DNA of 64,000 nt from Myxococcota bacterium (GTDB lineage Bacteria > Myxococcota_A > SURF-8 > G963663525): positions 1-64,000 of the forward strand of contig CAXXVK010000059.1 of NCBI GenBank assembly GCA_963676915.2, given 5' to 3'. Of this stretch, positions 35,276-60,846 are shown one piece after another. Position 1 is the stretch's first letter, and every line of letters starts with the position of its first letter. The notes beneath the pieces are model-generated. The model was not told where the DNA came from, did not search any database, and saw nothing but the letters and a program-made list of their open reading frames with translations. A program made the translations under genes and the position numbers.

Positions 35276-36285
35276 GATGATTTCCTTTCCTTGGTTTTCT
35301 TTTCGAGAACGCAGCCCGCCCAGTTGTCGGCGTATTGCAGCAGGCGGGTGAGCTTGGTTTCCTTGTGAGCCACGCCTTTGTTTTCATCGATGTACTGACC
35401 GTCATGAAAACGGATGGCCTGGCCTTCGTCCGCCGTGAGCTTGATGTGCTGGGAGACAAGAAACAGCGAGCGTGAGGCGATATCCATCCACGGGAGATCG
35501 TGATTGGTGATGTAGGTGATGTTGCGGTTGCGGACGTGCCATTGGCTGGGATTCGGGATGTAATACGGCTTCCCCGGCAGTCCGACCTTGCCGACATCAT
35601 GGTAAAGCGCCACGATCACGCAGCTTTCCTCTTCGATCTCCGGGGCCAGGACCGGGCGAAGTTTGAGGATGGTGTTGGCAACGTTCAACGAATGGATCAG
35701 CAAACCGCCTTCGATGTTGAGATGGTAGCGGGTGGACGCCGGTGCCGTCAGCCAGGCGGTTTCTTTTCGCAAGAAGCGGTCGAATCGTTGGACGGCCTCC
35801 GCTCGTTCGGTGATTTTTTCGAGAAGCTGGTCATACGAGAGGTTATCCGATGGATTCTTATGGCCGAGAAGCACTTTGGCCTGCTGAACGGCTTCCGTCC
35901 AGTTGCCCTCGAAGCGCAATGCCCTGTCATCGATATACAGATCGGCCAAGGGTTTGGAGGAAGTCCATGGGCCTTCCGGGTCGGTTTGGATGGCGTCATA
36001 CGGGATGCGGTTCACGCGCAGGTAGGAGTGCAACTTCGCGACGTGATCGTCCGAATTCGGCCTAGCGGTGTGGATGATGAGACGATAGCCGAGCTTCTTC
36101 AAATCTCTGAGCGCCTTCTGAACGCCTTCGATGGGTTCTCCGAACTCCTCGATACTCGATACCATTTGGGCAATGACGCCATCGAAATCCACACAGATGA
36201 CTTTGCTGCGTGGTGGCGATGGGCTTCGATCTTCGTGACCGCCCGGGCTGAGGACGCAGTTGTCCGGTTGTTCGTTCTTTTCCAT
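35272..36285 (-). CDS. HAD-like phosphatase fused to an HD-domain hydrolase
   Basis: CVDFDGVI and KPLADLYIDDRA, followed by APASTRYH...GGLLIHSLNV...ALYHDVGK...LLQYAD. Confidence 0.8.
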   Translation of the reverse strand: MEKNEQPDNCVLSPGGHEDRSPSPPRSKVICVDFDGVIAQMVSSIEEFGEPIEGVQKALRDLKKLGYRLIIHTARPNSDDHVAKLHSYLRVNRIPYDAIQTDPEGPWTSSKPLADLYIDDRALRFEGNWTEAVQQAKVLLGHKNPSDNLSYDQLLEKITERAEAVQRFDRFLRKETAWLTAPASTRYHLNIEGGLLIHSLNVANTILKLRPVLAPEIEEESCVIVALYHDVGKVGLPGKPYYIPNPSQWHVRNRNITYITNHDLPWMDIASRSLFLVSQHIKLTADEGQAIRFHDGQYIDENKGVAHKETKLTRLLQYADNWAGCVLEKKTKERKSS

Positions 36286-36300
36286 GTCGATTCTCCTTCG

Positions 36301-37719
36301 TTAGATCAATTCGAGGCCGAGAAAGCCCCTCGTATGAACCCCCGTGATTCGTCGCGTAGTGGTATGGAAACCGCGCTGCTTCAAGGCACGGCTCAAGGCT
36401 TTTTGACTCATGGGCTTGAGGGCGTGATCCAAGGCCCAGGTTTCATAGGATCGATAAAGATCCGCACTGGCAGAAAACCTGCTGCTGGACTCGTAACAGG
36501 CTTCGATCAGCCAATCCTCCACCTGGTCGCCTTCCTGACGATAAGCATCGGTCGCCAGCAAAACGGAATCCGGCGGGGTCAATCCCTTCTCCAGATAGTC
36601 CTGACAGCCCTGCAAGGCCCAATTGAGGATGCCGGGACCGGAAACGGAGGGATCGCAGAGGGTGCGTTTCAGGTAAGGATCGCGTTGAGGCTCCGGGACA
36701 CTACGGGGAAACGGCAGGCAGAGAATCCGCCGCCAGAGGGCATCATCCTCCTGATCGGCCAGAGGCGGATCGTTGGCGACTAGCCAGAGCGTGAATTGCG
36801 GTTTCCACTCCTGGGCTTCCTGATAGAGCGCTCTGGCGACGATGGTATCGCCGCCGGTCAGCATTTTGATGGTGGCTTCGGAGAGTTTCGCTCCCTTGTA
36901 GACTTCGTTGGCGACGACCAGGCGGGCTCCACGCAGTCGTGCGAGATCGTCCCGAGGGCCGCTGGAGGCACGATGTCGCAGGAACGAGGAAAAATCGGCG
37001 GTTCGGGCATAATCGCCGAAGACCATTTTGATGGCTTCGATGAACGTGGATTTTCCAGAAGCACCGGGACCGTAGACGAAAAAGAGCTTTTCCTCTTCGT
37101 TGGAGCCGAAAAGCGAATATCCGACGGCTCGTTGGATAAAGGCTTGCAGGGCGGCGTCTCCCTCGGTGGATTGATCGAGGAAACGGAGCCAATCGTCACT
37201 TTCGGCGTCGGCATCGAAGAGGACCGGGGAGATTTTGGAGACAAGATGCGCCGGTTGCGTCGGAATCAGATCCATCCTCATCAGGTCGATAAGGCCGTTT
37301 TTACAGCCGAGGAAATGAGGATCGGTATCGAAATCCTCTTCCCGAACGATGATCTCGGATTCGCTCTGTGCCGTCTCGATCATGGCTTTGAGACGTGCCA
37401 GGCTCTCGCAGGACCGTACATGCTTTTCGGTGGCATGTCGCTGTTTGGCGTCCTCGATGAGCTTGCAGTCGTCCTTCAACGCCTGAACGGACTCCTTGGC
37501 CCATCGCATGACCTGGCCGGTGTCATCAATACGCCACTTGGAACCGTCGAAGACGTACCAGCATCGTGTGCCATGACTGTACCGGATGCACTCGCCATGA
37601 CGAGCAATGAAACGACGGGCGATACCGATGTCGGTAAAGCCGAAAGCGGAATCATCAGAGCTGGTGTGAGTGTTGGCTTGAGAAGAGGAAACAACGGAAA
37701 TGGGAGAGCGTTTGGCCAT
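36301..37719 (-). CDS. Phage/plasmid P4-family D5_N + SF3 helicase (no primase domain)
   Basis: TDIGIARRF, WYVFDGSKW, GPGASGKSTF, LARLRGARLV..NE, IKMLTGGD.I.AR.LY and ALWRRI. Confidence 0.9.
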   Translation of the reverse strand: MAKRSPISVVSSSQANTHTSSDDSAFGFTDIGIARRFIARHGECIRYSHGTRCWYVFDGSKWRIDDTGQVMRWAKESVQALKDDCKLIEDAKQRHATEKHVRSCESLARLKAMIETAQSESEIIVREEDFDTDPHFLGCKNGLIDLMRMDLIPTQPAHLVSKISPVLFDADAESDDWLRFLDQSTEGDAALQAFIQRAVGYSLFGSNEEEKLFFVYGPGASGKSTFIEAIKMVFGDYARTADFSSFLRHRASSGPRDDLARLRGARLVVANEVYKGAKLSEATIKMLTGGDTIVARALYQEAQEWKPQFTLWLVANDPPLADQEDDALWRRILCLPFPRSVPEPQRDPYLKRTLCDPSVSGPGILNWALQGCQDYLEKGLTPPDSVLLATDAYRQEGDQVEDWLIEACYESSSRFSASADLYRSYETWALDHALKPMSQKALSRALKQRGFHTTTRRITGVHTRGFLGLELI

Positions 37720-37851
37720 GCCGAAAGCCCTCGATACAGGAAAGAAAGGGAATTCAAAAAACAGCAAAACCCCTCCCGAATGAACGGAAGGGATTGTTTA
37801 ACATACTGATAATACTACAGTATTGGTGAATTGTCAAATGGAGAAATTGAA

Positions 37852-38256
37852 TCATTTCTTTGTTTCGGGTTTATCCGTTGTCGGTTGCGCTTCCATTGGG
37901 TTGTCGTTGGATTCTTCTTCAATCGTTTGCTCGATAAAGCGCTGCTTGCTTTCGTCCCAACACCATACGTTGATTTGATCGGGATGCTTCTGGCACTCCC
38001 ACGGAGCGAGGGGACCATCGATCCCCTGAAGCTTCAGTGATTCGGTGGCGACCGTACCAACGGCTTGTCTTAGTTTTTCGGTCGCACGCTCTGTGATCTC
38101 CTGGTGGTTGGCGCAACTGACGGCAGAAAAACTAAAGAACAAGAGGACTATGCAGATTGTTAGACAGTTTTCTGGAAATAGATCTGCAAAACGACCATTG
38201 CTGGAAATATTCCGAGATATATCATTCCACTTTAATGAAGCTTTCATTTCTAACAA
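37852..38256 (-). CDS. Possible small lipoprotein; start unclear
   Basis: Hydrophobic stretch plus AVSC lipobox, but no ATG immediately upstream. Confidence 0.3.
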   Translation of the reverse strand: MLEMKASLKWNDISRNISSNGRFADLFPENCLTICIVLLFFSFSAVSCANHQEITERATEKLRQAVGTVATESLKLQGIDGPLAPWECQKHPDQINVWCWDESKQRFIEQTIEEESNDNPMEAQPTTDKPETKK

Positions 38257-38962
38257 CCAAACGCTTTTTACATGCTTTGCACGTTACACCCTTTGCCGTA
38301 GTGTCTGCCGAAATCTGGGTTTGGCACCAAGGGCAAGGACCTTTTAATCGCTTTATCGTCGAGACAGTTTTCCTGAATATCATGATAATCCCAACAATAA
38401 ACAGCGGACCTCCAATAATGGCACCAACTACACTCAAGGATAGGGCCAACCCAATTACCATCAATACAATACCAAGGACAGGATGTGAGCCAGAATCTGT
38501 TCTTTCATACAGAATTGTCTTCAGAGGGTCTTTAAATTTTATCGAGGTAATTTCTCTTACCTCGGCTGCTAAGTGGTTTTCGACAACGGTATTGGAGCCC
38601 TTTACCTTCTGAAGAGTTAGCATACAATCAGTACACATGAATTCGCCACTTTTTAGTGTTGTTTTTAGACTTCCAAGTGCGCATCCACAGACAGCACATT
38701 GACCGGAGGTTACGGGTGGTAATGATTCAGAATGTGGGTTGGAGCTACCTTCATTTTCAGTGGATTTGCTTAAATCTTCTGGCTCAACATAGGTGCCATT
38801 TATTTTATTTGCAATGTCTTCAATTGTCATGTTTTTTGAAACAACGCCAAACCCCTCAACTTTCACGAGCTTTCTATGGCAAGCGCAGCAGTATAATTCA
38901 CCAGTCAGGCTTTTATTTTTTAAAAGGCCAAGTTTATTACCACAGATCGCACAGTTTTCCAT
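38222..38962 (-). CDS. Membrane protein with two DUF4428-like Zn-ribbons and a C-terminal Zn-ribbon
   Basis: CAICGNKLG..CCAC, CAVCGCALG..CTDC, a TM hairpin, then CPWC..CKAC. Confidence 0.65.
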   Translation of the reverse strand: MENCAICGNKLGLLKNKSLTGELYCCACHRKLVKVEGFGVVSKNMTIEDIANKINGTYVEPEDLSKSTENEGSSNPHSESLPPVTSGQCAVCGCALGSLKTTLKSGEFMCTDCMLTLQKVKGSNTVVENHLAAEVREITSIKFKDPLKTILYERTDSGSHPVLGIVLMVIGLALSLSVVGAIIGGPLFIVGIIMIFRKTVSTIKRLKGPCPWCQTQISADTTAKGVTCKACKKRLVVRNESFIKVE

Positions 38963-39013
38963 AGGTTACATCCTTCCTGAAGGCCATTGTGCTACTCTTA
39001 GTGTTCAGCATAA

Positions 39014-39041
39014 ATGATACTTATAGACTGTAGACTGTCAA
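39014..39041 (-). promoter_or_regulatory. Putative sigma70 promoter with AGTCTA repeats in the spacer
   Basis: Minus strand TTGACA-GTCTACAGTCTATAAG-TATCAT, between the divergent Zn-ribbon and XRE genes. Confidence 0.45.
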
Positions 39042-39065
39042 GTATTCTCGCAAGACAATCCCCGC

Positions 39066-39281
39066 ATGAAAAAGGAGAAGAACAAAGCATGTGTGGATTT
39101 CGGTCGGAAAGTCCGCCAATTACGAGAAGAGCAAGGCTATTCTCAGGAAAGATTTGCCTTGGAAATCGAGATCCATCGGACGTATATCGGCGGCATCGAA
39201 CGCGGTGAACGAAATCCTACCCTCATCACCATCCACAAGATCGCGAAGGCGTTGAACGTCAAACCGAGTGAACTTCTGTAG
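39066..39281 (+). CDS. XRE-family HTH regulator (R-M controller-like)
   Basis: FGRKVRQLR...SQE.FA....IHRTYIGGIERGERNPTL. Confidence 0.9.
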   Translation: MKKEKNKACVDFGRKVRQLREEQGYSQERFALEIEIHRTYIGGIERGERNPTLITIHKIAKALNVKPSELL

Positions 39282-40039
39282 CCTTACGAGGACAAGATAC
39301 AGATTTACCTTCCTGCCAACTCTTCATTTTGAAAGGATGAGTCGGGCCGGATTCCGTTATCGTTTCTTCAAAAGATCATGCGTCTTCTGGTCTTTCAATG
39401 AATCCTAACTCTAATCATTACGGATGGGGAGACGAAGCTCTCTTTCTCTATTCGGGGACTCATACCATGTCAACGGTGACGAACGCATATGGGACGCCAA
39501 CAAATCAATATTCAAAAAATCGCCTACATAGCCCGATCCGGCCTTCAACCCTATTACGCCCTTCGAAAGGTCTGATCGTTGCTGAAAACGAAGATTTCGA
39601 GCTTCTTTCGCTATGTATTGCTGCCTTCGCTCTTGGACTTTTTCCCTGGACGAAGATCCCGGGACGAATCGAGTCAGCGTGATCGAATTTCGGATGTAAA
39701 GGAAACATGCCATAAAATTGAAAAAGGCAGCGAAATCAAACGATCTCCGCTGCCTTCTGAGTTATCTGAAAATGAGTGGTGAAGTTTCACTTCACGGTGC
39801 TCATTGCTATATTCCTGTTGGGAGCGAACCGAAGCCCGCCCCGCAGGTAATAAAATTATTTACTTATTTATTAGAATAATCATTAGGCATATTAAGAGTT
39901 TCTTTATTCATTTTTTTGTCTTTGTTATTCATGCTGTTATTAGCTTTAGTATTGTTTTTTTTGGTTCTATTGGTTCGTTCCGTTCGCCAATGCCTATCCG
40001 ACCACGTTCATCCCAACGCTGATAGGGTGACGCGAACGT

Positions 40040-40537
40040 TTAAGAATAGTCACTATCCAGCACCTTTTTCAATATGGCTTTGATTTCTTTTTTCTTGACG
40101 GTTTTTGCCATCATTTTGCCAATGGCTGGAAGGATATCATGCTCATGAACACGGCTATATTCAGAATAGGTTCTGGCCGCTCGGTTCGGTTTGATAACCT
40201 CTTCCAAGTATTGCTCTGACAGATCTTCGATTACCTGCGATTTTATCTTTTCGATACGTTGATTCAGAGGAACGGTCGCCGGATCATACCCCTGCTCAAG
40301 TCTTCGCACTGCATCACCATAAGCAGCGTGAGCCTTGGCGACTGTCATTTCTGGGTACTGCCCGAGTGTAAGCATTCTGGATTTGTTGTTGTACCGATAC
40401 ATGAAAATCCAGGATCTACGTCCAGTTGGAAAGATCCTAATGCCAAGATTTCCAAAACCGTAAGAATTCTCCTCCCAAACGTTGTAACGCTTGTCTCTTG
40501 GTTTCAGGCTAGAGATCTGTTTATCGGTGAATTTCAT
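40040..40537 (-). pseudogene. Truncated P4-like tyrosine integrase (arm-binding domain and part of the core-binding domain only)
   Basis: FTDKQI..LKP, LGIRIFPTGRRSWIFMYR, LTLGQYPEMTVAKA and G.DP. Stops at 165 aa with no catalytic domain. Adjacent to attR. Confidence 0.85.
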
Positions 40538-40706
40538 AATCAGTTGGTCTATTCGGGCTAGCACTGGGCTAGCATTTACAGGGTTGCAGTGGGTGAAAAC
40601 CAATGACACGGCATGAATACATAATACAGATAACATGTTGTAATTGCAAGTAATTCTAAAAACCTTCTGAATGCCATTGAAAGTCTATGAAATGCCATAG
40701 CTACTA

Positions 40707-40771
40707 ATTCGTAATCAGCAGGTCAGGAGTTCAAGTCTCCTCGTTAGCTCCAGTAAAATCAAGCACTTACG
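40707..40771 (+). repeat. attR (duplicated tRNA-Thr 3' half)
   Basis: ATTCGTAATCAGCAGGTCAGGAGTTCAAGTCTCCTCGTTaGCTCCAGTAAA..CAAGCACTTACG, followed by its own terminator hairpin. Confidence 0.9.
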
Positions 40772-41114
40772 GCTTCGGCAGTAAGTGCTTTTTTTATTCC
40801 GTCGTGCATCCGTCGTACAGGGGAAGGGATTTGGGGCAAACTATTTTTCAGGTTTGTCCTTGGATTGGTGGGGTGTACGTTCATTTGTGCGGTCTTGTAC
40901 GTTCATTCAAGAAAACAGATTACTCGCCTTCCTGAGCAAATTTACTCAATACATTGAGAATTCTGTAGCTGGTGCCAGTGGGAACCAATACTGCTGTAAA
41001 CGTTTTTCTTGCAAAGTACCTATTCGTAACTGTTTTTCACGTCTTGTAATCGTTTTTCTCGGAAACTCGTTCGATGATGGAAAAATTGCAACCAGATATC
41101 AAGAAGTGGATGCA

Positions 41115-41693
41115 CTATTGTCCAGTAGGCAATTTTCTATCGGCATTCTGGATCTGGCGGCGAGTGATCAGCCCCCGCTTAAGTGCTTCGGAAATAGCCT
41201 GCTCCAGAAGATCCCTAGGAAACGCTTCATCACCGGCAACATCCAGGATCGTTCGCATGGGGGGCGTCACAGCAACGCCGTGCATTTGCTGAATATCGGA
41301 TGGTGAAAGATCGGCAACATGAAGATGGAGAATATTCGGGATCTCGCTGTTGCGTCGAAATCCCTTCGGTACAATCATGTGGAGCCGGTCCGGATTGACA
41401 TCACTGAGATCGTGCAGCGCGAGGGCCGTGTCGTACGAGTAAACACCCTGGGGCTCTTCATTGCGGTTACGTGACCAGAGGTACCAGAGCATCAGATCTG
41501 GACGTTCGGTCTGGGGGTAGTTCGCCAGTCGGTAAATCCCCCGGTGCTCCCGGATCCAGTTACCCATTTCGACATGGTAGCCGATGGATTGTTCAAAGTA
41601 TCCCACGTCTTTCGCCTGTTTGGCCGTAAAGAAGCCCTGCTGGGCATCGGCAATATCGAACAGGCGTTTTGCTGTTTCAGTACTATCTCTCAT
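41115..41693 (-). CDS. Type IV TA AbiEi-family antitoxin (orphan)
   Basis: AQQGFFTAKQA, RGIYRL, VYSYDTALALHDLSD..P and VT...RTILD. Confidence 0.82.
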   Translation of the reverse strand: MRDSTETAKRLFDIADAQQGFFTAKQAKDVGYFEQSIGYHVEMGNWIREHRGIYRLANYPQTERPDLMLWYLWSRNRNEEPQGVYSYDTALALHDLSDVNPDRLHMIVPKGFRRNSEIPNILHLHVADLSPSDIQQMHGVAVTPPMRTILDVAGDEAFPRDLLEQAISEALKRGLITRRQIQNADRKLPTGQ

Positions 41694-41763: not shown

Positions 41764-42354
41764 TTAGGGATTGGGAAGAGTGCAGCAAAGCCGAATTACA
41801 ATAGTCTGCAGGATAGTTTCGGGCGAATCATGATCAGTTGAAAGAGGTGGAAGAACAGTGCATGGAAGTCTGCGCGCCAGCTGTTCCGCATGATCGCTTA
41901 CCTTCAAAAAGAACTGCATCAATTCCGTTGTTGGTCCTTGCTCACTCAGTCTTCGGCTCAAGGTATCAGTATCTATCCGTAATGGTTGAATCAATACTTT
42001 CTTCTCTATCGCACTTAGGAACCTCTGAATGACCGATAGATAGTGCAAATAGACATCCCTGTTTCGCATGGCGGCATAAGCGAGGTTTCCCGGATGCCAT
42101 GTTTCAACGATACGGGGGGCTTTGCATAACACGTCGCGAGCAATCTCTTCCTCGATGACCTTGCGGTCGAAAAGTGCTTCACTGTTGGCTGCGTGCGTTC
42201 CATCCGGTTTGGTCTGTTCAATTTCTCGATAGTAGCGCCCTATCTCGTCTTCAAAGGGAACTCCCAACCTTTCCGACAACATTTTTCCCAGTGTCGTCTT
42301 GCCGCTACCATGAGGTCCAATGAGGACCAAGATTGTATTTTCATACAGCTTCAT
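41764..42354 (-). CDS. P-loop nucleoside/nucleotide kinase-like protein
   Basis: LIGPHGSGKTT Walker A. ATGA overlap with the radical SAM gene. Confidence 0.75.
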   Translation of the reverse strand: MKLYENTILVLIGPHGSGKTTLGKMLSERLGVPFEDEIGRYYREIEQTKPDGTHAANSEALFDRKVIEEEIARDVLCKAPRIVETWHPGNLAYAAMRNRDVYLHYLSVIQRFLSAIEKKVLIQPLRIDTDTLSRRLSEQGPTTELMQFFLKVSDHAEQLARRLPCTVLPPLSTDHDSPETILQTIVIRLCCTLPNP

Positions 42355-43247
42355 ATTGCCTCCCACCATGTTAATACGTCTTCAGGATTTTCGACTTTTT
42401 TCATGTCGAAGGCTTGATCGCGGCGGAGCATGCAGGGTACGAGCAGACCGTCCGGCGTCAGACGCGCCGCATGAATGCCCTCTCTGCAAATCTTCCTTTG
42501 ACTGCAACTCTTGCACATGTGATAGGGGGCAAATTTTCCGAGCCGCTCGTGCTTGATCTCGACGATCATCTTACCGTAGTGGAGATGCTCAGTGGGCAGG
42601 CTGTAAGGGTCCGGGGCGACCACAATTTCATCAGGTCTTCCGAGAATGCGCTTCACGACCGCCTTCATGTCCTCAGGAGTCAGGTGTCCATTCAAGTCAT
42701 CCAGGGGATTCATGGTAGCGTTGTTCGACCGGGCCCAGTGCAACAGCTCGTGCAGATCACTAAAATCGCGTTCGCCCCGATAGACATAGTTTAGTTTGGG
42801 GTTGTAGGAGTGGGCAAGCAGATAGTCCAAGACGCGCATGCGCTGGTGGAATTGGCGATTGGAAGTTCCCGAACGGACGGCGGCTTCTTCCAGCGTGAAG
42901 CCGTGCAGGCTCAGGTTGATGCGGTCTAATCCGTTGGACAAGGCTGCTTTCACGACTTCCAGCGGTACGCAGCCGTTCGTGACTACAGAGAGGTCCGTAG
43001 TCGGAAAAACGTCGCGGATCTTACACAAGATGGAGATCAGGTGCGGATGTAAAAAAGCCTCACCTCCTAGGAGCTTGATTTTGCCGAGCAGCATCTCGGA
43101 TAACAGGTTCAGCCAGCGACCGAGATCCTCTGGCACCATGTCGGATTTCGGTTTCACATCGGCTCCCTCGCGGTGACAGTAGTTGCATTTCAGACCGCAG
43201 CGCTCCGTAATCTGAATGCGCAGGTAGCGGGGAATAGGGTTCAGCAT
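42351..43247 (-). CDS. MoaA-like radical SAM enzyme (not canonical MoaA)
   Basis: YLRIQITERCGLKCNYCH, KIKLLGGE, VTNG, RINLSL, KLN and C-terminal CKSC-x5-C...RLTPDG.L.PC. No terminal GG motif. Confidence 0.85.
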   Translation of the reverse strand: MLNPIPRYLRIQITERCGLKCNYCHREGADVKPKSDMVPEDLGRWLNLLSEMLLGKIKLLGGEAFLHPHLISILCKIRDVFPTTDLSVVTNGCVPLEVVKAALSNGLDRINLSLHGFTLEEAAVRSGTSNRQFHQRMRVLDYLLAHSYNPKLNYVYRGERDFSDLHELLHWARSNNATMNPLDDLNGHLTPEDMKAVVKRILGRPDEIVVAPDPYSLPTEHLHYGKMIVEIKHERLGKFAPYHMCKSCSQRKICREGIHAARLTPDGLLVPCMLRRDQAFDMKKVENPEDVLTWWEAI

Positions 43248-43828
43248 ACCGCCACCTCCTGCATCATGCCCATAGCGAGCTCAACCACTTCCTTTGGAGC
43301 GAGTTCAGTGGTATCGATGGAAATGACCCGCCCATGATATTCTTGCTGAAGCTCAGCTTGGTAGATCGTGCATAGTCGATCCGCCCGTTCCAGACTGTCA
43401 CGGTCGATGCGGGTGGTCTTATCGCGACCACGTATGCGCTGGTCCCTGACATCGGCGCCTGCCGTCAGAAAGAGCGTGACATCCGGCGTGAGGCAGTCAC
43501 GTTCCAGAGCATCTCGGCAAGGCTCGAACCCACCCAGGCGAGCGTATGCGATCGTGCTCGCCAGGTAACGGTCCATGACGTCCGAACGGCCACCAAGAAG
43601 AAGCTCCTGCGCCCTAACGCTAGCTCTCAGTACAGTGGAAGCGTAATAGTAAAAGCGCGCCGGGTAGATATCGGCAAGGTTGCTGTCGATCGTATCCCGC
43701 ACCGCTGATAATTCTTTGGGCGGCGTGGTCAGCAGCTCCGCCTTCAGCGATGTGGCCAGTAGATCAGCGACGGTCGATTTTCCCACTCCGTCCAGCCCTT
43801 CCACTACAACGAAGATCGGTTTCAGCAT
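43241..43828 (-). CDS. Thymidylate-kinase-fold NMP kinase (CMPK2-like)
   Basis: VVVEGLDGVGKST, LL.TPP, FYY, MDRYLASTIAY and PDVTLFL. Confidence 0.85.
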   Translation of the reverse strand: MLKPIFVVVEGLDGVGKSTVADLLATSLKAELLTTPPKELSAVRDTIDSNLADIYPARFYYYASTVLRASVRAQELLLGGRSDVMDRYLASTIAYARLGGFEPCRDALERDCLTPDVTLFLTAGADVRDQRIRGRDKTTRIDRDSLERADRLCTIYQAELQQEYHGRVISIDTTELAPKEVVELAMGMMQEVAVC

Positions 43829-43831
43829 GGC

Positions 43832-44323
43832 TTACACCTCCTCTTCGCACGCTGCTTCGATAGCCACCACTTCCGCTTGCCGTGATTTGCCTGCGAGACT
43901 GATGACGACCTCGTCGCTGATTTCCTTGCCGATCAGGTATTGTCCGAGGGGCGCATTGTAGGCTACCCGATTTCTGGCGGGGTCGCTGTCGTCGTAGCTG
44001 CCGATCACGAGGCGACGTTCTTCCTCCTCGTCCTCGAACAGGATCGTGACCGCGCATCCTGGAGTGACCCGCTCCGGGTCGGTCGGCGGCACGATCAGGT
44101 CGACACGGGTTAGGATTTCCTCCATTTCTTTGATTCGGCGGGCAAGTTGGTGCATCTGACGCTGGTTTTCTTCGTAGGCGAAGTTGTCATGCCACACAGA
44201 ATTGTCACCGGCATCGGCGGCATCCTCGTTCGTGGCGGTAACGCTGAAGTAAGCCTCGCGTACTTTTGAATATTGGTCGTTGAAGCGGGCCAAGCCGCCC
44301 TTGGTCATGATATAGCGGTTCAT
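43832..44323 (-). CDS. GreA/GreB-family factor with atypical acidic tip
   Basis: MTKGGL, AADAGDNSVWHDNFAYEE, and C-terminal YNAPLGQYLIGKEISDEV. ATGA overlap with the upstream ORF. Confidence 0.85.
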   Translation of the reverse strand: MNRYIMTKGGLARFNDQYSKVREAYFSVTATNEDAADAGDNSVWHDNFAYEENQRQMHQLARRIKEMEEILTRVDLIVPPTDPERVTPGCAVTILFEDEEEERRLVIGSYDDSDPARNRVAYNAPLGQYLIGKEISDEVVISLAGKSRQAEVVAIEAACEEEV

Positions 44324-44697: not shown

Positions 44698-45381
44698 TTA
44701 TTCGTCGGACTCATATTCTTCTGTAATTTTATGCACATATACTTGAACAGATGGTGCCTTTGCCGTCCGATCAACCCATTTAACGAATTCAGTAAAATTG
44801 TCTGGTTTCGGGTCTAGGTCGTCAACAGTATCGCTCGCGAACAGCCAGAAGGTCACTCGACCTTCTGAATCTTCAATTCTGTAGTCATCGACTTTACGTG
44901 GTTCGAAGGGCAGATCACTTACTGTATTTCTTTCGTCGGTCAAAATATGAAACTCTTCTTGATCATTGGTCGCCACAACCATCGCCCTTGCGGGAGTGGA
45001 AGTTAGATAGACCTTGATTCTGAATAGCCTCTTATCTTCGTCGTCCCGGATTAGATGTAGTCCCTCCGCATAGTCAATACATTGTGGAGTTCCACAAAGT
45101 GTTGCAACAGCCCTGAAAGTGGTAATGGGTTGGTCAAATACGGCCTTACCTTTTTCCCATAACGAAGTGACGAAAAAGGACAGTGTCTGGATTGATTCTG
45201 AACAGATGTGATCTTGCTTTTCCTGGTTCCATTCGAAGCCAAGATAGTCGAGCACATTCAGAATTCGATCATCCTGGCATCGGCCCAACCAGAGGTCAAC
45301 TTCGATCCGGTCTTCACGTGTGAGTTGTCCCCGAACAAGCTTGCGGAGGGTGGCAACATCTGGTGGAAGTTTGATAGGCAT
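44698..45381 (-). CDS. Hypothetical with degenerate zf-HC2 anti-sigma-like N-terminus
   Basis: PDVATLRKLVRGQLTREDRIEVDLWLGRC resembles L..Y..G.L...E...VE.HL..C..C. TGATG overlap with the upstream ORF. Confidence 0.5.
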   Translation of the reverse strand: MPIKLPPDVATLRKLVRGQLTREDRIEVDLWLGRCQDDRILNVLDYLGFEWNQEKQDHICSESIQTLSFFVTSLWEKGKAVFDQPITTFRAVATLCGTPQCIDYAEGLHLIRDDEDKRLFRIKVYLTSTPARAMVVATNDQEEFHILTDERNTVSDLPFEPRKVDDYRIEDSEGRVTFWLFASDTVDDLDPKPDNFTEFVKWVDRTAKAPSVQVYVHKITEEYESDE

Positions 45382-45998
45382 CAGGAAAAATTCTCCTTCC
45401 ACATTTCTATCGTTTTTGCAATCTCACGCTGCTCTGTTTCCGATAGAACCTCATCAATTTTCAGAAAATCCGTTATCGAACCACGAATGGCCAATGCAAT
45501 AAATGGTTCTTCGTGGATCGAGCAATCTCGACCAACCAACTCCATCACAGTGTCCTTGCTACCTTTAGCTGATTCGAGCCGTAATTCCCTTGCTGTTTTC
45601 CATTTTTCACCAAATCCAGGAGCACTCTTTAGTCTTCCCGCAAATGAGTAAGGTGGCTCATCCTTCTCAAACTTTGAAAAGTATACAGCAGTTATCGCAT
45701 CGAGGTACTCAGGTTTCCTAAAAATAGAAACATCGCCCAAAATCCCTTTCCAAACCACGCAATGCCGCCAAGCAGCCAGAAGTCCATATTTCGATCGATT
45801 GCCTTTAGTGAAATTAAGCATTTCAGAAGGCAGTTCAGTGTTAATTGGCTCAGGCTGAAATCCTAACACCCTTAAAGCCCGTTTAGCATGCCGAAACCAG
45901 ATTGGTCGCATGGCAGGACAGGTCGTATCCGCCATATCTCCGAGGGCGATAATGATTTCCCTGTAAAGTTTCTCTTTAGCAGAATCACTCATGTTCAC
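45381..45998 (-). CDS. Hypothetical protein between the CHAT and anti-sigma-like genes
   Basis: 205-aa ORF starting 1 bp after the CHAT stop and overlapping the next gene. Confidence 0.6.
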   Translation of the reverse strand: MNMSDSAKEKLYREIIIALGDMADTTCPAMRPIWFRHAKRALRVLGFQPEPINTELPSEMLNFTKGNRSKYGLLAAWRHCVVWKGILGDVSIFRKPEYLDAITAVYFSKFEKDEPPYSFAGRLKSAPGFGEKWKTARELRLESAKGSKDTVMELVGRDCSIHEEPFIALAIRGSITDFLKIDEVLSETEQREIAKTIEMWKENFS

Positions 45999-45999
45999 A

Positions 46000-48900
46000 T
46001 CAGTTCGCTATTGCGGATAGATCACTTGCCAATACTCTCCAACCAGCCCAGGTCCAGGGTGCTCGAAGTACATCCATTAATTTGTCAATTGCGGCGTCTG
46101 GTTGCTTTATCCATGCATCTTCCCGGCCCTGATTCTTTCGCTTGACAGGTCCAAGCATCACTTGGTCAAAAGAAACTATGGAAAAATCCTCGTATCTGAT
46201 GTGTGGAACATCGGGATCCAACCGTTGGTGAGAGGCTATTAGAGCTCCAACTATTGATCGTCTTTTTACCTCATCTCCATTAAAACCACCACTGATAGCG
46301 TTTTGGGCAAACTCGCGCAAAGTGCTTTCGAAAATTCCCTTTGCCGTCATCAAGTCACGGTACCAGAAGATGGCTTTACCGAGAGCACGTGCGTCTTCAG
46401 TTGCCGAATGAGAATTCTCCGCGAAACGGTTAAATGCATCGGCAATCAGTATTGCAGAAATTGGATGTTGCTTCCAGGATGATCCGATAACACGCTTGGC
46501 TCCTGCTACCAAGAAAGCTGTGGCTATCCCTCGTGGTTCATCAAAATCAAGTGAATAGCTTAGAGGGTCAAAATAATGTGCTGAATCGCAAGCCCAAAGT
46601 TCAACACGTGCGCACCTCGTCAGATCAGCACATCGAATTTCCGATATTCCCCAAGGAAAAATGATTGGCTCAGCCAGTTTCCTGTCGTCAAGCATGATGC
46701 CGCTGGCCGAATCTGGAAAATTGTAGTATTTCCCATGCGCAAAGATCTTTAGGTTCCTAGCCTGTGAAAACTGGCTTTCAAGTTCTATCCTGGCAGCCTC
46801 TGTATCCATACCATCTTTTGCGCAATGGGCTACTCTGGATGTATCCCTGGACAGAAGCGGACCTGCCAGATGCAGTATTGAATCATGATCTTTTGGCGTA
46901 CCAATGTACAGAACGTCAGTTGAGTTATCATCGCTGTTTGTAGATAGCCTTGCGGATAACGTATTCAGACGGATAATTGCTATGACCTCTGATAGTGTTT
47001 CTAGTCCAGTCGATATGGGAATCGCCTCCAAAGGCAATTCCCGTACTCCTTTTCGATCGAGGAGGACAAGCGAATGTATATCGTTTTCTTCCGTAATCTT
47101 GTGGAGTTTTTCTCCAATGGGAAGTAAGTCGGATAGGAGTTGATTCAACAAGTCATTGAACTCTTCAAGTGCTGATTCAGAAATTCCCAGAGACCTAAGC
47201 TTGGGCATGTATTTTAGAAGGTCATCTTCTAGGCCGGAAAAATGGTCTGGACTTATTATCGATCCAGTTTCAATATTTTGCACCGATTCGAAATCAATTC
47301 TACTCCGAACATCCATCAAACGATCCAAGGCCTCCAAAAGTTGGTCATTCTGATCGTTTGATTCTCCAAATACTGGTATTTCCCGGATTTCATGTCCATC
47401 CAATAGGAACAGACTTATCGTGGCATTTCGATTCTCGTTGTTATAACCACCAATCGTCAGGATTCCTGTACGGCTATTCTTCTCTAGCCAATTTATCAAT
47501 TCTTCAAGATCAAGTCTTGGAATTTTAAGATTTCCAGAAGGAAGGAATCCTTTTTCCTGCCCTTCCTTGAACAAATCACCCAGCAACGCCGCTTCTCGAA
47601 ACATCTCTTCTGTGGGATTCTTGTTTTGCTCTTGGGTAATATTTCCATCAGGGTTGAAATTGTAGTTGAAGCTCTCTATAGGTAACTTCTGAATACTTGA
47701 AAGGATTGGGTCGTTAACATCCAGAGCCAATTCATGGAAGTGGTGGTCGGCCCATTTTTCGAGGGTCACCCTAGTCCGGTACAAATTCATTCGCCAGACC
47801 GCTTCGCTATATGTTTTAACCTCGCCTTGACCATAAAACCCCATATCGCTCCGATAACAAGCGGCTCCGGACATTTCGGCGAGTTCGAGAAATTTTTCTG
47901 CAGATACTACTCGCTTATTTCTTGCTGGATCCAAGATGGAAAGAAAATTCATTTGCCTGGAAATCAACAACCTGTAAACATTTGGAAGCCTGACATCTAC
48001 CAGCTGAGACTCTAGATCAGCCAATCGTTTTGATAGGTAGGTGCTTAAAGCTTCATCTCCAATATTTTTAAGGTGCCGTTTTAAGAACATCCACTCTTGA
48101 ATAAGCACCACTTTGGTTTCTTTCAATCCAGTATCGAGAAGATTTATATGTTGCAAACATGTGCGAAGAGACGGCAATGCTTCACTTGGGTTTTCGCGAA
48201 TCGACATGAGGGCTGACGAAAGATGTCCAGCATCCGTTCGCCCCAGAATTCCGTTTCCTGCGATTCGCATGAGCAATGAGTCCAGACCTGTTCTTGGATC
48301 AACAGCAGTTTCAAGATTCGCTAGCTGTTCATAAACCTGGATATTTTGTGCGACGCCAGAGGTGTGACGTCTTGGGTGCTTTTTCAAAAGTGGTAGTATT
48401 CTGTCCGCAAGAAGTTTTAGCCTCTCTTCTTTTTCCTCTTCTGTTACTTCACCTCTCTGATGCAGGAAATGGATGTATTCACGTTTGGCATTGGAGAAAT
48501 TTAATTCCTTCTCAATGCGCTCAATTGACATGGGTTGCTTGCGATAGTATTCAGCCAAAGATTCTTCATGGATATCTATTGCATTGAGATAATATAGGTG
48601 TCGATCCTCATCATCTGTGCAGTTGTCAGCCAAGTACTTATAGGCGGAAGCCAGAGAGGACTGTGTCATCCAGAATTGGTTTGGACTATTTATTCTTTCC
48701 TGAATAGAATTCGCTTTTCGAAAGTATTCTACTGCCTTCTGCAAGTTTGACGTGCGGTCACCTGACGACTCATCCTTCATTGCTTCTGCAAGATTATGAA
48801 GAATCTGACCAAGAAGACCCGATAGATTTGGATCATACGTGTCGTCTAACATCCTCTCTGAAACAGATACGAGTTCTTGAAGTATTCCATTCCCCCAATC

Positions 48901-49422
48901 ACGGTCACTCAAATACGGTGAATTTACTAAGCACATACCGAGGCGCATTCGGATGTCGATCAGAAGGGATTGACTATTGGGTTTGTTTGAATTTCTCAGA
49001 CTTGAGAGGGGGACGAGGTTATTGACTTCCAATATTAACGTGAGTGCAAGAGGATCATCAACTTGGGTTTTCCCCACATAGACCCATGCGAATCCAATAA
49101 CAGCAGTAATATCTTCGGAAGAAAATACTTTGGATTTTGTTGCAGAAATATACTTAAGCAGCAATAGCAGAAAGAATGGATTGGCTATCCTTTGAGGATC
49201 ACCGAGTATTTCCTTCCTTCTTTGTTTCGATGGAACCTTGCCATATTTCATCACCTGAGCGACTGTTTCTGCTGCCTTTTCTGGATGGACACCCTCATCT
49301 TCGATCAAGGAAACAAAATGCTTCCAACCTTTTCGGAAAATATTTCCACCTTTATAGCGTAATCGAGAAGATGACTTGATTTGTTTCTTATTCTTCGGCA
49401 TGCAGATAAAGTTTCTATTCAC
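46000..49422 (-). CDS. TPR-like + CHAT (caspase-like) protease
   Basis: Helical repeats (LHNLAEA...NLQKAVEYF, QSSLASAY), LPLEAI, FAHG (His), LWACDS (Cys), GIATAFLVAGAKRVIGS.W and PWTWAGW. Confidence 0.85.
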   Translation of the reverse strand: MNRNFICMPKNKKQIKSSSRLRYKGGNIFRKGWKHFVSLIEDEGVHPEKAAETVAQVMKYGKVPSKQRRKEILGDPQRIANPFFLLLLLKYISATKSKVFSSEDITAVIGFAWVYVGKTQVDDPLALTLILEVNNLVPLSSLRNSNKPNSQSLLIDIRMRLGMCLVNSPYLSDRDWGNGILQELVSVSERMLDDTYDPNLSGLLGQILHNLAEAMKDESSGDRTSNLQKAVEYFRKANSIQERINSPNQFWMTQSSLASAYKYLADNCTDDEDRHLYYLNAIDIHEESLAEYYRKQPMSIERIEKELNFSNAKREYIHFLHQRGEVTEEEKEERLKLLADRILPLLKKHPRRHTSGVAQNIQVYEQLANLETAVDPRTGLDSLLMRIAGNGILGRTDAGHLSSALMSIRENPSEALPSLRTCLQHINLLDTGLKETKVVLIQEWMFLKRHLKNIGDEALSTYLSKRLADLESQLVDVRLPNVYRLLISRQMNFLSILDPARNKRVVSAEKFLELAEMSGAACYRSDMGFYGQGEVKTYSEAVWRMNLYRTRVTLEKWADHHFHELALDVNDPILSSIQKLPIESFNYNFNPDGNITQEQNKNPTEEMFREAALLGDLFKEGQEKGFLPSGNLKIPRLDLEELINWLEKNSRTGILTIGGYNNENRNATISLFLLDGHEIREIPVFGESNDQNDQLLEALDRLMDVRSRIDFESVQNIETGSIISPDHFSGLEDDLLKYMPKLRSLGISESALEEFNDLLNQLLSDLLPIGEKLHKITEENDIHSLVLLDRKGVRELPLEAIPISTGLETLSEVIAIIRLNTLSARLSTNSDDNSTDVLYIGTPKDHDSILHLAGPLLSRDTSRVAHCAKDGMDTEAARIELESQFSQARNLKIFAHGKYYNFPDSASGIMLDDRKLAEPIIFPWGISEIRCADLTRCARVELWACDSAHYFDPLSYSLDFDEPRGIATAFLVAGAKRVIGSSWKQHPISAILIADAFNRFAENSHSATEDARALGKAIFWYRDLMTAKGIFESTLREFAQNAISGGFNGDEVKRRSIVGALIASHQRLDPDVPHIRYEDFSIVSFDQVMLGPVKRKNQGREDAWIKQPDAAIDKLMDVLRAPWTWAGWRVLASDLSAIAN

Positions 49423-49470: not shown

Positions 49471-49740
49471 TTATCCATTATTAGGATCATAACCACTTTC
49501 CCCTCTTGCCGTTTCTTTCTTAAATATCTGCTGCCCGCAATTCCTACACTCCCACTTCGGATCATCATCGGTTAGACTGCATCCGCCCACGATTAGTTTT
49601 CCGGATTCAACATCCCGGTAATACTGCTCCGTAGGTATCGGCATTCCGTATAAGATTACACCCATCGGTTTAAAACCGCAGCTTGGACACTTTCCTGGGC
49701 GTCTCACTCGTTCAATACGCTTATTATTGGGTTCTGGCAC
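49471..49740 (-). CDS. Small Zn-ribbon protein
   Basis: CPSCG...ILYGMP...GGC....PKWECRNCG. Confidence 0.7.
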   Translation of the reverse strand: MPEPNNKRIERVRRPGKCPSCGFKPMGVILYGMPIPTEQYYRDVESGKLIVGGCSLTDDDPKWECRNCGQQIFKKETARGESGYDPNNG

Positions 49741-50441
49741 TACATCTCTCCCAAGGCACTGATCGTTGTGCGAACTAAGCTCTGAGCGCTTTCTTCACGT
49801 ATATCGAAAGGGTCGTAGCCGATATCATCTGCCAGCCAGAGCGTTCCCGTTGTTTCCATACAGATACGAGGCTCACCATTTTTCCTGAGAAACCAGAAGC
49901 GATAGGCCGATTGACCAAGAAAGTCATCCGGCAGTTGTTGGGACAGTCTTTCCTTGGCTGGCCTGAACCGATCGAAATCATATACTACGAAGCAACCATC
50001 CATTCCGGAACTGTCGAAATAGCCGTTGCGGCATTGCCACTCATTCGAGACATCCGCCATGTACTGAAGATAGGCGGAAATAAACCTGTATATCTCAACG
50101 TGAACGCCGGGAGAGGTCTCTATTGATGATTCTGTAAGTCCAGCCCAATTCAGCACTTGCAGGTTCAATTCCTCAGGGCTATCAAACATACCTTGCCAAT
50201 CGTGAGAACTTTGCGTCCCATGGTCTGCACCATCCAGCCGGTTAAAAACATGGAAACGACCGTTGAGATTTAGATCGGCAATATGCGTTTGGTCCGTGCT
50301 GTAGAGGGACAGGCAGTCATACTGTCCCCCGCCCGGATGGGTTTCGATTATGCGAAGATCGGGACGTCGACTCACAATGGCGGTGAGCAGTTTCCAAGCT
50401 CGTGCATGGAGCGACGTCACGTTATGAATGGGAGTTCTCAT
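49740..50441 (-). CDS. Conserved hypothetical, possibly TY-Chap2-like
   Basis: RRPDLRIIETHPGGGQYDCLSL motif, recalled from conflict-system-associated proteins. Confidence 0.5.
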   Translation of the reverse strand: MRTPIHNVTSLHARAWKLLTAIVSRRPDLRIIETHPGGGQYDCLSLYSTDQTHIADLNLNGRFHVFNRLDGADHGTQSSHDWQGMFDSPEELNLQVLNWAGLTESSIETSPGVHVEIYRFISAYLQYMADVSNEWQCRNGYFDSSGMDGCFVVYDFDRFRPAKERLSQQLPDDFLGQSAYRFWFLRKNGEPRICMETTGTLWLADDIGYDPFDIREESAQSLVRTTISALGEM

Positions 50442-50454
50442 GCTGATCGTCCCT

Positions 50455-51807
50455 TCATATCGCGATTCGCAAGATTCGGATATTTGAGTCTGACTCAACG
50501 CCAAAAGTCAACTGCCTTGCGAACTGCTGTTTCCCCCGCTCGGTCTGGATGCTTTTCGGTGCGTCAATCCACTTCACCAGTTCTGTTAGGTATACCGGGC
50601 GCAGACGGACTTCGCTCATCTTCTTGCCGGATACGGGTTCGTGAATGGCGATCCGTGACTCGCTGGCCCTGGAACTCATCGTTGGATAGAGGATCGTTGA
50701 GGCTTTCACCTGTGGATGCGCCAGGGCGTACATGCCAAGTTGATAGAGCATATCGCGAGGCAGCGCGTGTTCCCACAGATCCCGGTATTTTGCGTCTAGA
50801 ACTTCTACTGTCCGCGCCTCTTTACGAATAATAAAGTCGGGTCGCGGCAACGGTGCGCGTCGACGCTTGGGGTTGAAATCCGGCTGATAGGCGAACATAC
50901 CCTTCAATGAATGCTCTTCCAGAACCTCGAATTCCGGTAGGTTCTCACGTAGAAAGCGACCAAGCACGCTCTGATACAAGCGGTTCATGTCAAACAGGAA
51001 GCCCGGTATCGGCTGTTCGCTTTCGCTCGAATCCAGCAGGATGCCGTGCGACTGGGCCAATAGCTTTGCAAGGGTAATGGCCGGTTTGTAGTGGCGCAAC
51101 AGCCTTCCGTGCTGTCGATCCAGCTCATCAAAAAATGCTTTGGATAATCGTTGTTCAGATACATCTTCTGACATCACGGACGATAGCTGGCGACATCGAA
51201 ATGCCAGCTGCTTATCGATGGTTAAACGCGCCGCAAGAGCGAGGGACGCCCGCAGGCACTGATTGTGTGGAATGTCGAGAAGACGCGGGTGAATCCGACA
51301 TGGCAGGCGGCTGTCCTGGCGAAAGCCGTCTCTTGCGATGCGTGGGATATCGAGGCGCCCCCTGGGCAACGCCAAATAGCGTTGCTGATCGATGTAACGT
51401 TTTGACAGACCACGCTGCATCAGCGTCTTGATCTCCGCCAGCAGCTGAACGATGAGCAGTTCCACGAGGCCGGATTCTTCGGTATGGATCTCCGATGGAT
51501 CGAAGAGGTGTAGTTTGTTCAGATCGTAAGCATACCGAAAAAGAGAAAGCAGCGGGAGTCGGTCGATCTTGGGTTGAATGTTGAACAGGACCGGGCCGAC
51601 CTGCAAACGCCCGACATAGGACGTGGTTTCAATTTCCAATCCTGATTTCAGATCCTTAACCTGAAGAAATCCGGCACGCGATAGCTTCTCGGCCAGGTTG
51701 CGATCCGGTTCACTCAACGAGATCGGAACGGATGCGCCTCTGTCGTCGACAAGCGTTTTTCGTTGCCACTCATGAAGATTCAGAGAGATATCCGCCTGAT
51801 TGGTCAT
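50455..51807 (-). CDS. mcrC: McrC-family restriction subunit
   Basis: SYVGRL, IQPKI, RGRLD, FDMNRLYQ, RPDF, VLDAKYR and DMLYQL.MYA. Overlaps the McrB stop. Confidence 0.92.
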   Translation of the reverse strand: MTNQADISLNLHEWQRKTLVDDRGASVPISLSEPDRNLAEKLSRAGFLQVKDLKSGLEIETTSYVGRLQVGPVLFNIQPKIDRLPLLSLFRYAYDLNKLHLFDPSEIHTEESGLVELLIVQLLAEIKTLMQRGLSKRYIDQQRYLALPRGRLDIPRIARDGFRQDSRLPCRIHPRLLDIPHNQCLRASLALAARLTIDKQLAFRCRQLSSVMSEDVSEQRLSKAFFDELDRQHGRLLRHYKPAITLAKLLAQSHGILLDSSESEQPIPGFLFDMNRLYQSVLGRFLRENLPEFEVLEEHSLKGMFAYQPDFNPKRRRAPLPRPDFIIRKEARTVEVLDAKYRDLWEHALPRDMLYQLGMYALAHPQVKASTILYPTMSSRASESRIAIHEPVSGKKMSEVRLRPVYLTELVKWIDAPKSIQTERGKQQFARQLTFGVESDSNIRILRIAI

Positions 51808-59410: not shown

Positions 59411-59431
59411 TTCGCTCCTCTACTGGCATTG

Positions 59432-60841: not shown

Positions 60842-60846
60842 TGTTG

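Follow-up and report, generated by a model that had tools for sequence, protein, structure and literature searches.

The first 64,000 nucleotides of contig CAXXVK010000059.1 from a Myxococcota bacterium (assembly GCA_963676915.2), referred to here as the window, carry a gene for a Gre-fold protein with a remodelled, WHDN-type tip. It stands first in a compact operon of about 2.6 kb and is followed by a Tmk-like kinase, a MoaA-like radical S-adenosylmethionine (SAM) enzyme and a second P-loop kinase. Across genomes, the extended, cassette-type form of this tip and the radical SAM enzyme are mutually obligate. Secondary-channel factors are reportedly known as stand-alone regulators, and nucleotide-analogue immunity of the viperin kind is said to be known without a polymerase partner; the obligate joining of a Gre factor and nucleotide enzymes in one operon suggests an undescribed, probably antiviral, system. 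We consider it quite probable that the Gre protein is the RNA polymerase (RNAP)-docking part of a nucleotide-modifying, and probably defensive, module. The four genes of the cassette are as follows.

43832..44323, minus strand: WHDN-type accessory Gre factor, 163 residues, with an N-terminal coiled coil (helices 8-37 and 43-72) and a C-terminal beta domain
43241..43828, minus strand: Tmk-like nucleoside-monophosphate (NMP) kinase, 195 residues, starting after a gap of 3 nucleotides (nt) past the Gre stop
42351..43247, minus strand: MoaA-like radical SAM enzyme, 298 residues, its start overlapping the kinase stop by 7 nt
41764..42369, minus strand: second P-loop kinase-fold protein, 201 residues, its start overlapping the radical SAM stop by 19 nt

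The Gre open reading frame (ORF) begins with an ATG at 44323, with GGAGGTGGGAG just before it; an alternative TTG at 44341 would add six residues. Pfam recognises both halves of the protein (GreA_GreB C-terminal domain PF01272, 8.8e-16; N-terminal domain PF03449, 1.1e-5), and the NCBIfam GreA and GreB models match it end to end, at 75.9 bits against a cut-off of 145 and 57.3 bits against 171, respectively; the protein falls under every GreA/GreB equivalog cut-off of that collection. An AlphaFold2 (AF2) model built with 27 homologues (predicted local distance difference test, pLDDT, 89.6; predicted template modelling score, pTM, 0.79) shows two helices of 30 residues each, a loop at 38-42 that connects them, and then a beta domain, and the first ranks of a Foldseek search with it are GreA, Gfh1, GreB and a GreA/Gfh1 chimera (query TM-score, TMq, 0.72-0.77). 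Pfam, AF2 and Foldseek thus each find the coiled coil and globular C-terminal domain of the GreA/GreB fold. The C-terminal domain motif xPxxxxLxGK is kept (APLGQYLIGK here, SPMAKQLIGK in the organism's own GreA), and in a hidden Markov model (HMM) alignment an RRVR-type run on the helix after the tip falls on the RRVR of GreB, which we take to be the patch that holds backtracked RNA. Rnk models cover only the C-terminal half (NF004548, 3.2e-8; PDB 3bmb, 0.0011).

The genome encodes three Gre-domain proteins: a canonical GreA, a 138-residue Rnk-like protein and the Gre of the window. The last is therefore a third, accessory paralogue, as the first-pass annotation, made from the sequence alone, had supposed. 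Its housekeeping counterpart lies on another contig.

Contig C67, L001 1495-1968: canonical housekeeping GreA, tip HGDLSENAEY
44150..44209, minus strand: tip segment of the window Gre, residues 39-58, GDNSVWHDNFAYEENQRQMH, three residues longer than the GDLSEN of canonical GreA

The same annotation had described the tip as carrying an insertion and an Asp in place of Glu, and both features were recovered by two kinds of alignment. Residues 39-52 of the window Gre read GDNSVWHDNFAYEE (codons 44168-44209), whereas the housekeeping GreA of the same genome reads HGDLSENAEYDAAK at its tip. BLASTP aligns the two proteins at 31% identity over 125 residues with a single three-residue gap, exactly at the tip (GDNS[VWH]DN against GDLS---EN), and HMM alignment to Escherichia coli GreA, GreB and the Thermus GreA/Gfh1 chimera gives the same three-residue insertion, placing D40 on D41 and D46 on E44. 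The D-x-x-E spacing of GreA and GreB (GDLxEN) is thus not kept: both D40 and D46 are there, with five residues between them. In 27 homologues with an overall identity of only 38-54%, 25 columns are invariant, and 16 of them fall in residues 39-58, namely G39, D40, S42, W44, H45, D46, N47, F48, Y50, E51, E52, N53, Q54, R55, M57 and H58, and the 26 Gre sequences from cassette loci show the same conservation. Judged by this clustering of invariant columns, the tip is under much stronger constraint than the rest of the protein, and its insertion and its Asp for Glu are not a product of chance.

The remaining genes of the operon look like enzymes of nucleotide metabolism. The Tmk-like kinase matches Pfam Thymidylate_kin (1.4e-19) and, among the PADLOC models, PDC-M51B (2.7e-41) and VakA (7.3e-19). 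It reaches only 60.9 bits on TIGR00041, for which the cut-off is 83.25, whereas a separate Tmk on contig C13 scores 166.9; by these scores it is not the housekeeping deoxythymidine monophosphate (dTMP) kinase. Its P-loop, its DRY motif and the lid arginines R128, R131 and R135 are nonetheless all invariant among homologues. The second P-loop protein is matched by Pfam AAA_28 (2.1e-8) and modelled by AF2 at pLDDT 92; it has the invariant motifs GPHGxGKT and ETWHPGN..Y, and Foldseek places it with deoxynucleoside kinases, thymidylate kinases, shikimate kinase and NadR (TMq about 0.6). Scans for promoters and terminators gave nothing above shuffled expectation, a look through sequencing runs brought up no RNA data, and the prediction of a complex between Gre and the Tmk-like kinase (alignments A3 and A4) scored 0.00, which speaks neither way. 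A 93-residue orphan ORF overlaps the Gre gene, its TGA sharing an ATGA with the Gre ATG. We rejected it as part of the system: it has no homologue in 5.8 billion proteins and is missing from other cassette loci.

What kind of radical SAM enzyme is this? It had been taken at first for a viperin-like protein, and this does not hold. It matches Pfam Radical_SAM (6e-17), and MoaA models align over its full length (4.7e-31 to 1.3e-28; 98.6-107.9 bits against cut-offs of 231-325), whereas the viperin model NF038283 matches only the N-terminal 120 residues, 13-132 (6.7e-10; 38.6 bits against a cut-off of 180), and the PADLOC pVip models match weakly. Residues 7-283 align with Staphylococcus aureus MoaA (1tv7). 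Invariant in 26 homologues are C17, C21 and C24 of the CX3CX2C motif, G61-G62-E63, and four further cysteines, C245, C248, C254 and C272. Arginines stand at the positions of S. aureus MoaA R17 and R268 and a histidine at that of R266; it is at these three positions that the PDB entries 1tv7 and 2fb2 are not alike, and in MoaA the residues there presumably bind guanosine triphosphate (GTP). The gene content nevertheless argues that the enzyme does not serve molybdenum-cofactor synthesis, because neither MoaC nor an above-cut-off MoaA was found in the genome (assembly 90.8% complete). The organism may be without molybdenum-cofactor synthesis altogether, the incompleteness of the assembly being kept in mind. 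Since the enzyme is MoaA-like and not viperin-like, the 3'-deoxy-3',4'-didehydro-NMP (ddhNMP) or 3'-deoxy chain terminator that had been envisaged as its product is an assumption.

That these genes form a unit is borne out by their co-occurrence. A scan from the Gre protein over one genome per prokaryotic species yielded 80 loci, 38 of them at 39% identity or more and mostly from Myxococcota. Twenty-five of these 38 close loci have all four cassette genes on one strand; three lack the Tmk-like gene only, one is rearranged next to an insertion sequence (IS) element, and eight end at contig ends yet fit the cassette. The sole clear exception is L015, with no radical SAM or kinase gene within 6 kb of its Gre. 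In the reverse direction, a scan of 400 genomes from the phylum of L004 found the cassette-type radical SAM in 16, some of these loci being the same species representatives as in the Gre scan; a WHDN Gre lies within 1.5 kb of it at 15 of the 16, and the contig of the sixteenth ends before the expected position. An independent metagenome sample of 80 loci, gathered with the pattern of the wider WHDN family, included 16 with the cassette-type tip. Twelve of these have the radical SAM and the other four, on short contigs, show kinases only, whereas none of the 64 loci with other tips has it. The association of Gre and radical SAM, which the first-pass annotation had suggested checking, is thus strongly positive both ways (25/38 and 15/16; 12/16 against 0/64), and since it is positive in both directions, Gre genes of the cassette clade cannot be said to occur mostly alone. 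At the exceptional locus (L015 3741-6492) the Gre, 43% identical and with the full EENQRQMH tip, directly follows a 725-residue PRTase-CE protein.

Two gene orders recur, Gre-Tmk-rSAM-Ploop and rSAM-Ploop-Gre-Tmk, where rSAM is the radical SAM enzyme; the operon therefore consists of two blocks, [Gre+Tmk] and [rSAM+Ploop], each of which stays intact when the order changes. The tightest partner of the Gre protein, missed at first, is thus the Tmk-like kinase, adjacent in the permuted operons and fused to it in one lineage, where P0223 and L121 (93% identical) are clean Gre-linker-Tmk fusions with a linker of about eight residues. Two other apparent fusions were rejected. In L027 (359 residues) the C-terminus of Gre is garbled and that genome has its radical SAM divided between two frames, pointing to a frameshift artefact. 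P0269 (517 residues, nominally Gre joined to Radical_SAM) arises from reading through a frameshifted cassette and contains Arg/Pro-rich stretches in the wrong frame. A search for longer fused forms of the window Gre returned P0269 only.

There are signs that the cassette was acquired horizontally. Its G+C content (GC) is 0.53-0.57 compared with 0.43-0.46 in the flanks, and the Gre gene was found in none of 40 relatives at E<=1e-15 (one from its genus, eight from its order and 31 from its phylum). Searched against 5.8 billion proteins, the window Gre has 131 relatives, mostly 40-55% identical. Plasmids gave no match, phages two weak ones, of which one is an ordinary GreA, and viral contigs one distant relative.

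The WHDN motif itself is far more widespread than the cassette. A profile search shows that it marks an unnamed and very large subfamily of Gre proteins, mostly without a radical SAM: among 1.84 billion representatives there were 12096 matches at E<=0.001, 2086 at 1e-10 and 19 at 1e-30, and W[HY]DN was present in 124 of 146 newly returned top matches, with about eleven more Y/F-HDN forms recognised by eye and one canonical tip. The idea that WHDN is specific to the operon therefore has to be narrowed: it does not hold for WHDN, and it does for the longer tip GD(N/S/T)xxWHDNFA(Y/F)EENQRxMH. No dedicated NCBIfam family was found, 45 of 45 diverse WHDN members matching only GreA, GreB and Rnk models, below cut-off, and profile alignments to known structures turned up no solved structure of the WHDN type. 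Genomes of 0.8-1.5 Mb keep a WHDN Gre beside a canonical Gre, and five small genomes with a distant WHDN Gre hold another Gre gene that scores better on the general Gre-domain model.

The partners of this wider family are again nucleotide enzymes in a substantial number of cases. A scan of the 110 ORFs directly beside the Gre at 66 metagenomic WHDN loci found a nucleotide-handling gene at 28, with 17 Tmk-like (one a fusion) and 12 NUDIX and/or methyltransferase; the remainder include CYTH proteins, other P-loop kinases and one radical SAM. The kinases adjoining other WHDN Gre factors, where tested, all match PDC-M51B. The tip differs with the partner: GD(N/S/T)xxWHDNFA(Y/F)EENQRxMH pairs with the radical SAM, AGxxCDWHDNFGYEDAKRR with a NUDIX-methyltransferase and GG(N/D)xWHDN with a kinase alone or with nothing. 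Such tracking of partner enzyme by tip subtype is suggestive, but relatives share both labels, and co-evolution is not proved by it.

Several further arrangements were seen within the subfamily. A second WHDN architecture (L063 5860-8687, L041 3302-6483, L057 3694-8348) combines Gre with a kinase of Tmk or AAA_28 type, a NUDIX-methyltransferase fusion and a CYTH protein, and in one genome of the Candidate Phyla Radiation (CPR) the last three activities are fused into a single NUDIX-MTase-CYTH protein (MTase, methyltransferase). We know of no described function for this combination. Adjacent Gre-family gene pairs, one member being WHDN, occur in tandem (L117 192-1193, L118 484-1485) and convergently (L138 3968-4899). 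In L047 (3849-6363) and the related gut Bacilli/Tenericutes of L043-L055, the WHDN Gre has the tip DDAYGDGWHDNFAYEETM and its gene overlaps that of a UvrD-like helicase at the latter's end; these genomes are of 1-1.5 Mb and also have a canonical Gre. L141, L146 and L151 share a WHDN subtype whose tip is QSSETWHDNFPFEEAQRQ and which is extended at the N-terminus (about 236 residues in total); in each case an Lcl_C-domain protein comes next.

How might such a module work? Binding to RNAP, the chemistry of the product, a role against viruses and whether RNAP is helped or hindered are all matters that we infer. By analogy with viperin and its kinases, the product of the enzymes would be a non-canonical nucleotide: the radical SAM enzyme would convert a nucleotide, probably a purine nucleoside triphosphate (NTP), into a form that disturbs polymerases during phage infection, and the kinases would raise the nucleotide to the triphosphate level. 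As in other members of its family, the Gre-like protein would reach with its coiled coil into the secondary channel of host RNAP, where the longer tip, with both carboxylates (D40 and D46) and a Trp and His, would deal with the abnormal nucleotide at the 3' end of the RNA. The explanation that we favour, though tentatively, is a specialised rescue, in which transcript cleavage excises the module's own product from host transcripts and so protects the host RNAP, while single-subunit phage polymerases, unable to use a Gre factor, would stay blocked. We prefer it because both carboxylates are invariant and a GreB-like arginine run follows the tip. The original proposal of a Gre-fold accessory paralogue with a remodelled tip, possibly a self-immunity factor or an RNAP effector, is upheld in its first part by Pfam, by the organism's own GreA and by the alignments; between rescue and block of RNAP, sequence cannot decide.

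A number of observations weigh against rescue, or against a defensive role altogether. The longer tip with its bulky Trp could equally occlude the NTP site, and residues 31-50 around it are the least confident part of the AF2 model (pLDDT 58-62). The most constant partner of Gre is the kinase, adjacent in 16 of 66 unrelated WHDN loci, and for a pure immunity protein there is no obvious reason for such a tie. To our knowledge, the known viperin systems work without any immunity gene, so the logic of such a system does not call for an immunity role. No other PDC-M51 component was found in the operon with the PADLOC models, which matched only PDC-M51B. Among the flanks of 20 other cassette loci (117 of 126 ORFs scanned, with genes called defence-like on our own reading of Pfam names), 11 have defence-like or mobile neighbours (GmrSD, RAMP, Cas_NE0113, UvrD-PD(D/E)XK, Uma2, CHAT-TPR, Macro with an integrase, SbcCD, DUF4145 and superfamily 1 (SF1) helicases) and nine have housekeeping or unknown ones. 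In the wider subfamily, 38 of the 66 loci have no nucleotide enzyme alongside, and WHDN Gre factors are present in tiny genomes; a general role independent of any analogue is possible for these reasons. Finally, Gfh1 and Rv3788 keep acidic tip residues yet inhibit RNAP, according to the part of review PMC4598747 available to us, so that retained acidic residues do not show cleavage.

This last precedent also serves the opposite account, somewhat unlikely in our view, in which the WHDN Gre is an effector that plugs the secondary channel and shuts off transcription, leading to abortive infection or dormancy. It might act alone, with the module's nucleotide as a co-ligand in the manner of DksA and guanosine tetraphosphate (ppGpp), or by holding the Tmk-like kinase at the mouth of the channel, from where the analogue would be fed directly into RNAP. 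A tip three residues longer, with an invariant Trp and His, would suit stacking on or binding a nucleotide; Gre and kinase together form the conserved core, and in P0223 and L121 they are one protein; and the tip subtype co-varies with the partner enzyme. An archaeal cleavage-factor paralogue, TFS4, is moreover a virus-induced RNAP inhibitor, although it has lost the acidic residues that are both invariant here (PMC5715097, as far as the part available to us goes). A constitutively co-transcribed inhibitor of RNAP would also need tight control, and there is no regulator in the conserved cassette; the diphosphates that an NMP kinase yields are not what RNAP usually takes as substrate; the GreB-like basic run is in keeping with a cleavage factor; and there is one solid fusion lineage only, the two other apparent fusions being artefacts. 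A more elaborate form, which we regard as unlikely, is an RNAP-docked nucleotide device: Gre would anchor the kinase at the mouth of the NTP-entry channel and the WHDN tip would position a modified nucleotide, so that RNAP is switched off or re-programmed on demand, here for abortive infection. The nucleotide would come from interchangeable partners, the MoaA-like radical SAM in this cassette and a NUDIX-methyltransferase or CYTH protein elsewhere, and such a device, widespread among bacteria, would parallel DksA-ppGpp and archaeal TFS4.

Might the module have nothing to do with defence? The WHDN Gre and Tmk-like pair could act in quality control or regulation of transcription and the nucleotide pool, with the MoaA-like neighbour unrelated or metabolic. 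The very size of the family (2086 cluster representatives at E<=1e-10; 124/146 W[HY]DN) is in keeping with this, as are the housekeeping surroundings of many members (RF2/ABC, ribonucleotide reductase/SecD, UvrD), the retention of a WHDN Gre beside a canonical one in the 0.8-1.5 Mb genomes, NUDIX partners that suggest pool sanitation, and the nine of 20 cassette loci without a defence-like neighbour. We judge it distinctly unlikely for the cassette itself, in which the mutual dependence of radical SAM and tip speaks against accidental adjacency, the distribution is patchy (16/400 genomes of one phylum, 0/40 relatives), the kinase belongs to a PADLOC defence-candidate family, and the genes lie among Zorya, McrBC and AbiEi in the window with a GC unlike the flanks. 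Production of a nucleoside analogue for bacterial competition, with Gre as the self-resistance of the producer's RNAP, is highly improbable. The carriers are mostly Myxococcota, prolific producers of natural products; self-resistance genes are typical of natural-product clusters, and a radical SAM with two kinases could build a modified nucleoside. Against this, the conserved cassette of only about 2.6 kb has no exporter, phosphatase or tailoring genes, and both in the window and in several other genomes it is part of a defence island. Least credible of all, to the point of being nearly dismissible, is a redundant GreA paralogue of ordinary activity with no functional tie to its neighbours: the fold is that of Gre and the best family matches are GreA models, but the protein is far under every GreA/GreB cut-off, its tip motif is different and invariant, and its linkage to the neighbours is obligate in both directions.

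Comparison with described systems sets the cassette apart from each of them. With GreA and GreB (TIGR01462, TIGR01461) the window Gre has in common the two-domain fold, the length, the two tip carboxylates and the xPxxxxLxGK motif; it differs in reaching about half the GreA cut-off, in a tip three residues longer with an invariant Trp-His-Asp-Asn, in lying in a nucleotide-enzyme operon and not alone, and in being extra to a canonical GreA. Rnk, the 'regulator of nucleoside diphosphate kinase', likewise belongs to the Gre family and has historically been linked with a nucleotide kinase, and the recurrent kinase pairing of the WHDN subfamily may explain that old link. A separate Rnk-like gene is nevertheless present in the genome, and Rnk has a short coiled coil and about 136 residues (according to the available part of PMC4598747), compared with 163 residues and a full-length coiled coil here. 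Gfh1 of Thermus/Deinococcus and Rv3788 of Mycobacterium resemble the window Gre in fold, acidic tip and accessory status, and Gfh1 is among the best structural matches; they are stand-alone genes with a tip of GreA length, and the part of the same review available to us reports no WHDN or link to a kinase or radical SAM for them, the Rv3788 sequence not having been compared for WHDN. TFS4 of Sulfolobus is also a cleavage-factor paralogue with a rebuilt tip and a tie to the virus response, but it is archaeal and TFIIS-like, its acidic residues are replaced by lysines and it has no enzyme partners, in so far as the accessible part of PMC5715097 describes it.

Among enzyme systems, the nearest likeness is to prokaryotic viperins with VakA and vertebrate viperin with CMPK2, in which a radical SAM that acts on nucleotides stands beside nucleotide kinases, in defence islands. 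The adjacent nucleotide kinase of the pVip systems is kept (two in the operon, one matching VakA at 7.3e-19), whereas the radical SAM resembles MoaA, has a C-terminal cluster of four cysteines and is not of the viperin family. MoaA itself shares the full-length alignment, the CX3CX2C motif, the C-terminal Cys cluster and the arginines at R17 and R268, and differs in length (340 residues against 298, the C-terminal tail being missing here), in the His for R266 and in the absence of MoaC from this genome. The candidate system PDC-M51 of PADLOC is represented by the Tmk-like kinase (PDC-M51B, 2.7e-41), as it is by kinases beside other WHDN Gre factors, but no other gene of the operon, and no tested NUDIX-methyltransferase, CYTH or Gre protein, matches PDC-M51 models. 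Our literature search found no description of the cassette, of WHDN-type Gre factors or of PDC-M51. Linkage of viperins to kinases is documented in the preprint 10.1101/2023.09.13.557418, the main text of which, supplements aside, does not mention a Gre factor; MoaA-branching sequences are used there as outgroup and negative control, and the MoaA-like radical SAM clade of the cassette is one that viperin surveys would have put aside in this way.

If the Gre protein protects host RNAP, it would be the first dedicated self-immunity factor for a defence of the chain-terminator type, and a tool to remove analogue-blocked 3' ends. If it blocks RNAP, it would be the bacterial equivalent of the virus-induced archaeal inhibitor TFS4.

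The surroundings of the cassette have the gene content of a defence island. PADLOC identifies a complete type I Zorya system (ZorD E=0, ZorC 3e-113), and between it and the cassette lie further genes of restriction or defence type; on the other side, the genes at 35272-41693, next to the cassette, are remnants of a mobile element.

56084-63422, minus strand: complete type I Zorya system (ZorA 61644-63422, ZorB 60847-61647, ZorC 59432-60841, ZorD 56084-59410)
53551-54573, minus strand: Mrr_N-domain protein, after the McrBC-like pair
50455-51807 and 51804-53624, minus strand: McrBC-like pair, McrC-type and AAA_5 GTPase-type respectively
49740-50504: TY-Chap2 protein
46000-49422, minus strand: TPR-CHAT protein of 1140 residues, upstream of Gre
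45381-45998 and 44698-45402, minus strand: two ORFs without a family, upstream of Gre
41115-41693: AbiEi, with no room downstream for AbiEii
40040-40636: integrase fragment of 198 residues, with Arm-binding and N-terminal SAM-like domains only
39066-39281: C-protein-like helix-turn-helix (HTH) protein
36301-37767: D5_N/DUF5906 primase-helicase
35272-36285: HD-domain protein
19804-21603, plus strand: second, unrelated radical SAM protein of 599 residues with two radical-SAM-like halves (PADLOC pVip, 5.3e-25)

The TPR-CHAT protein, the two ORFs without a family and the orphan ORF are not conserved beside the cassette at other loci, and the CHAT protein of the window is unrelated to that of L022. 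The second radical SAM was compared with a 644-residue radical SAM beside Gre in L023 and set aside as a relative, the similarity being generic (26% identity). It is preceded by a 293-residue ORF without a family (region 18926-21603, plus strand), and may be another nucleotide-modifying defence candidate.

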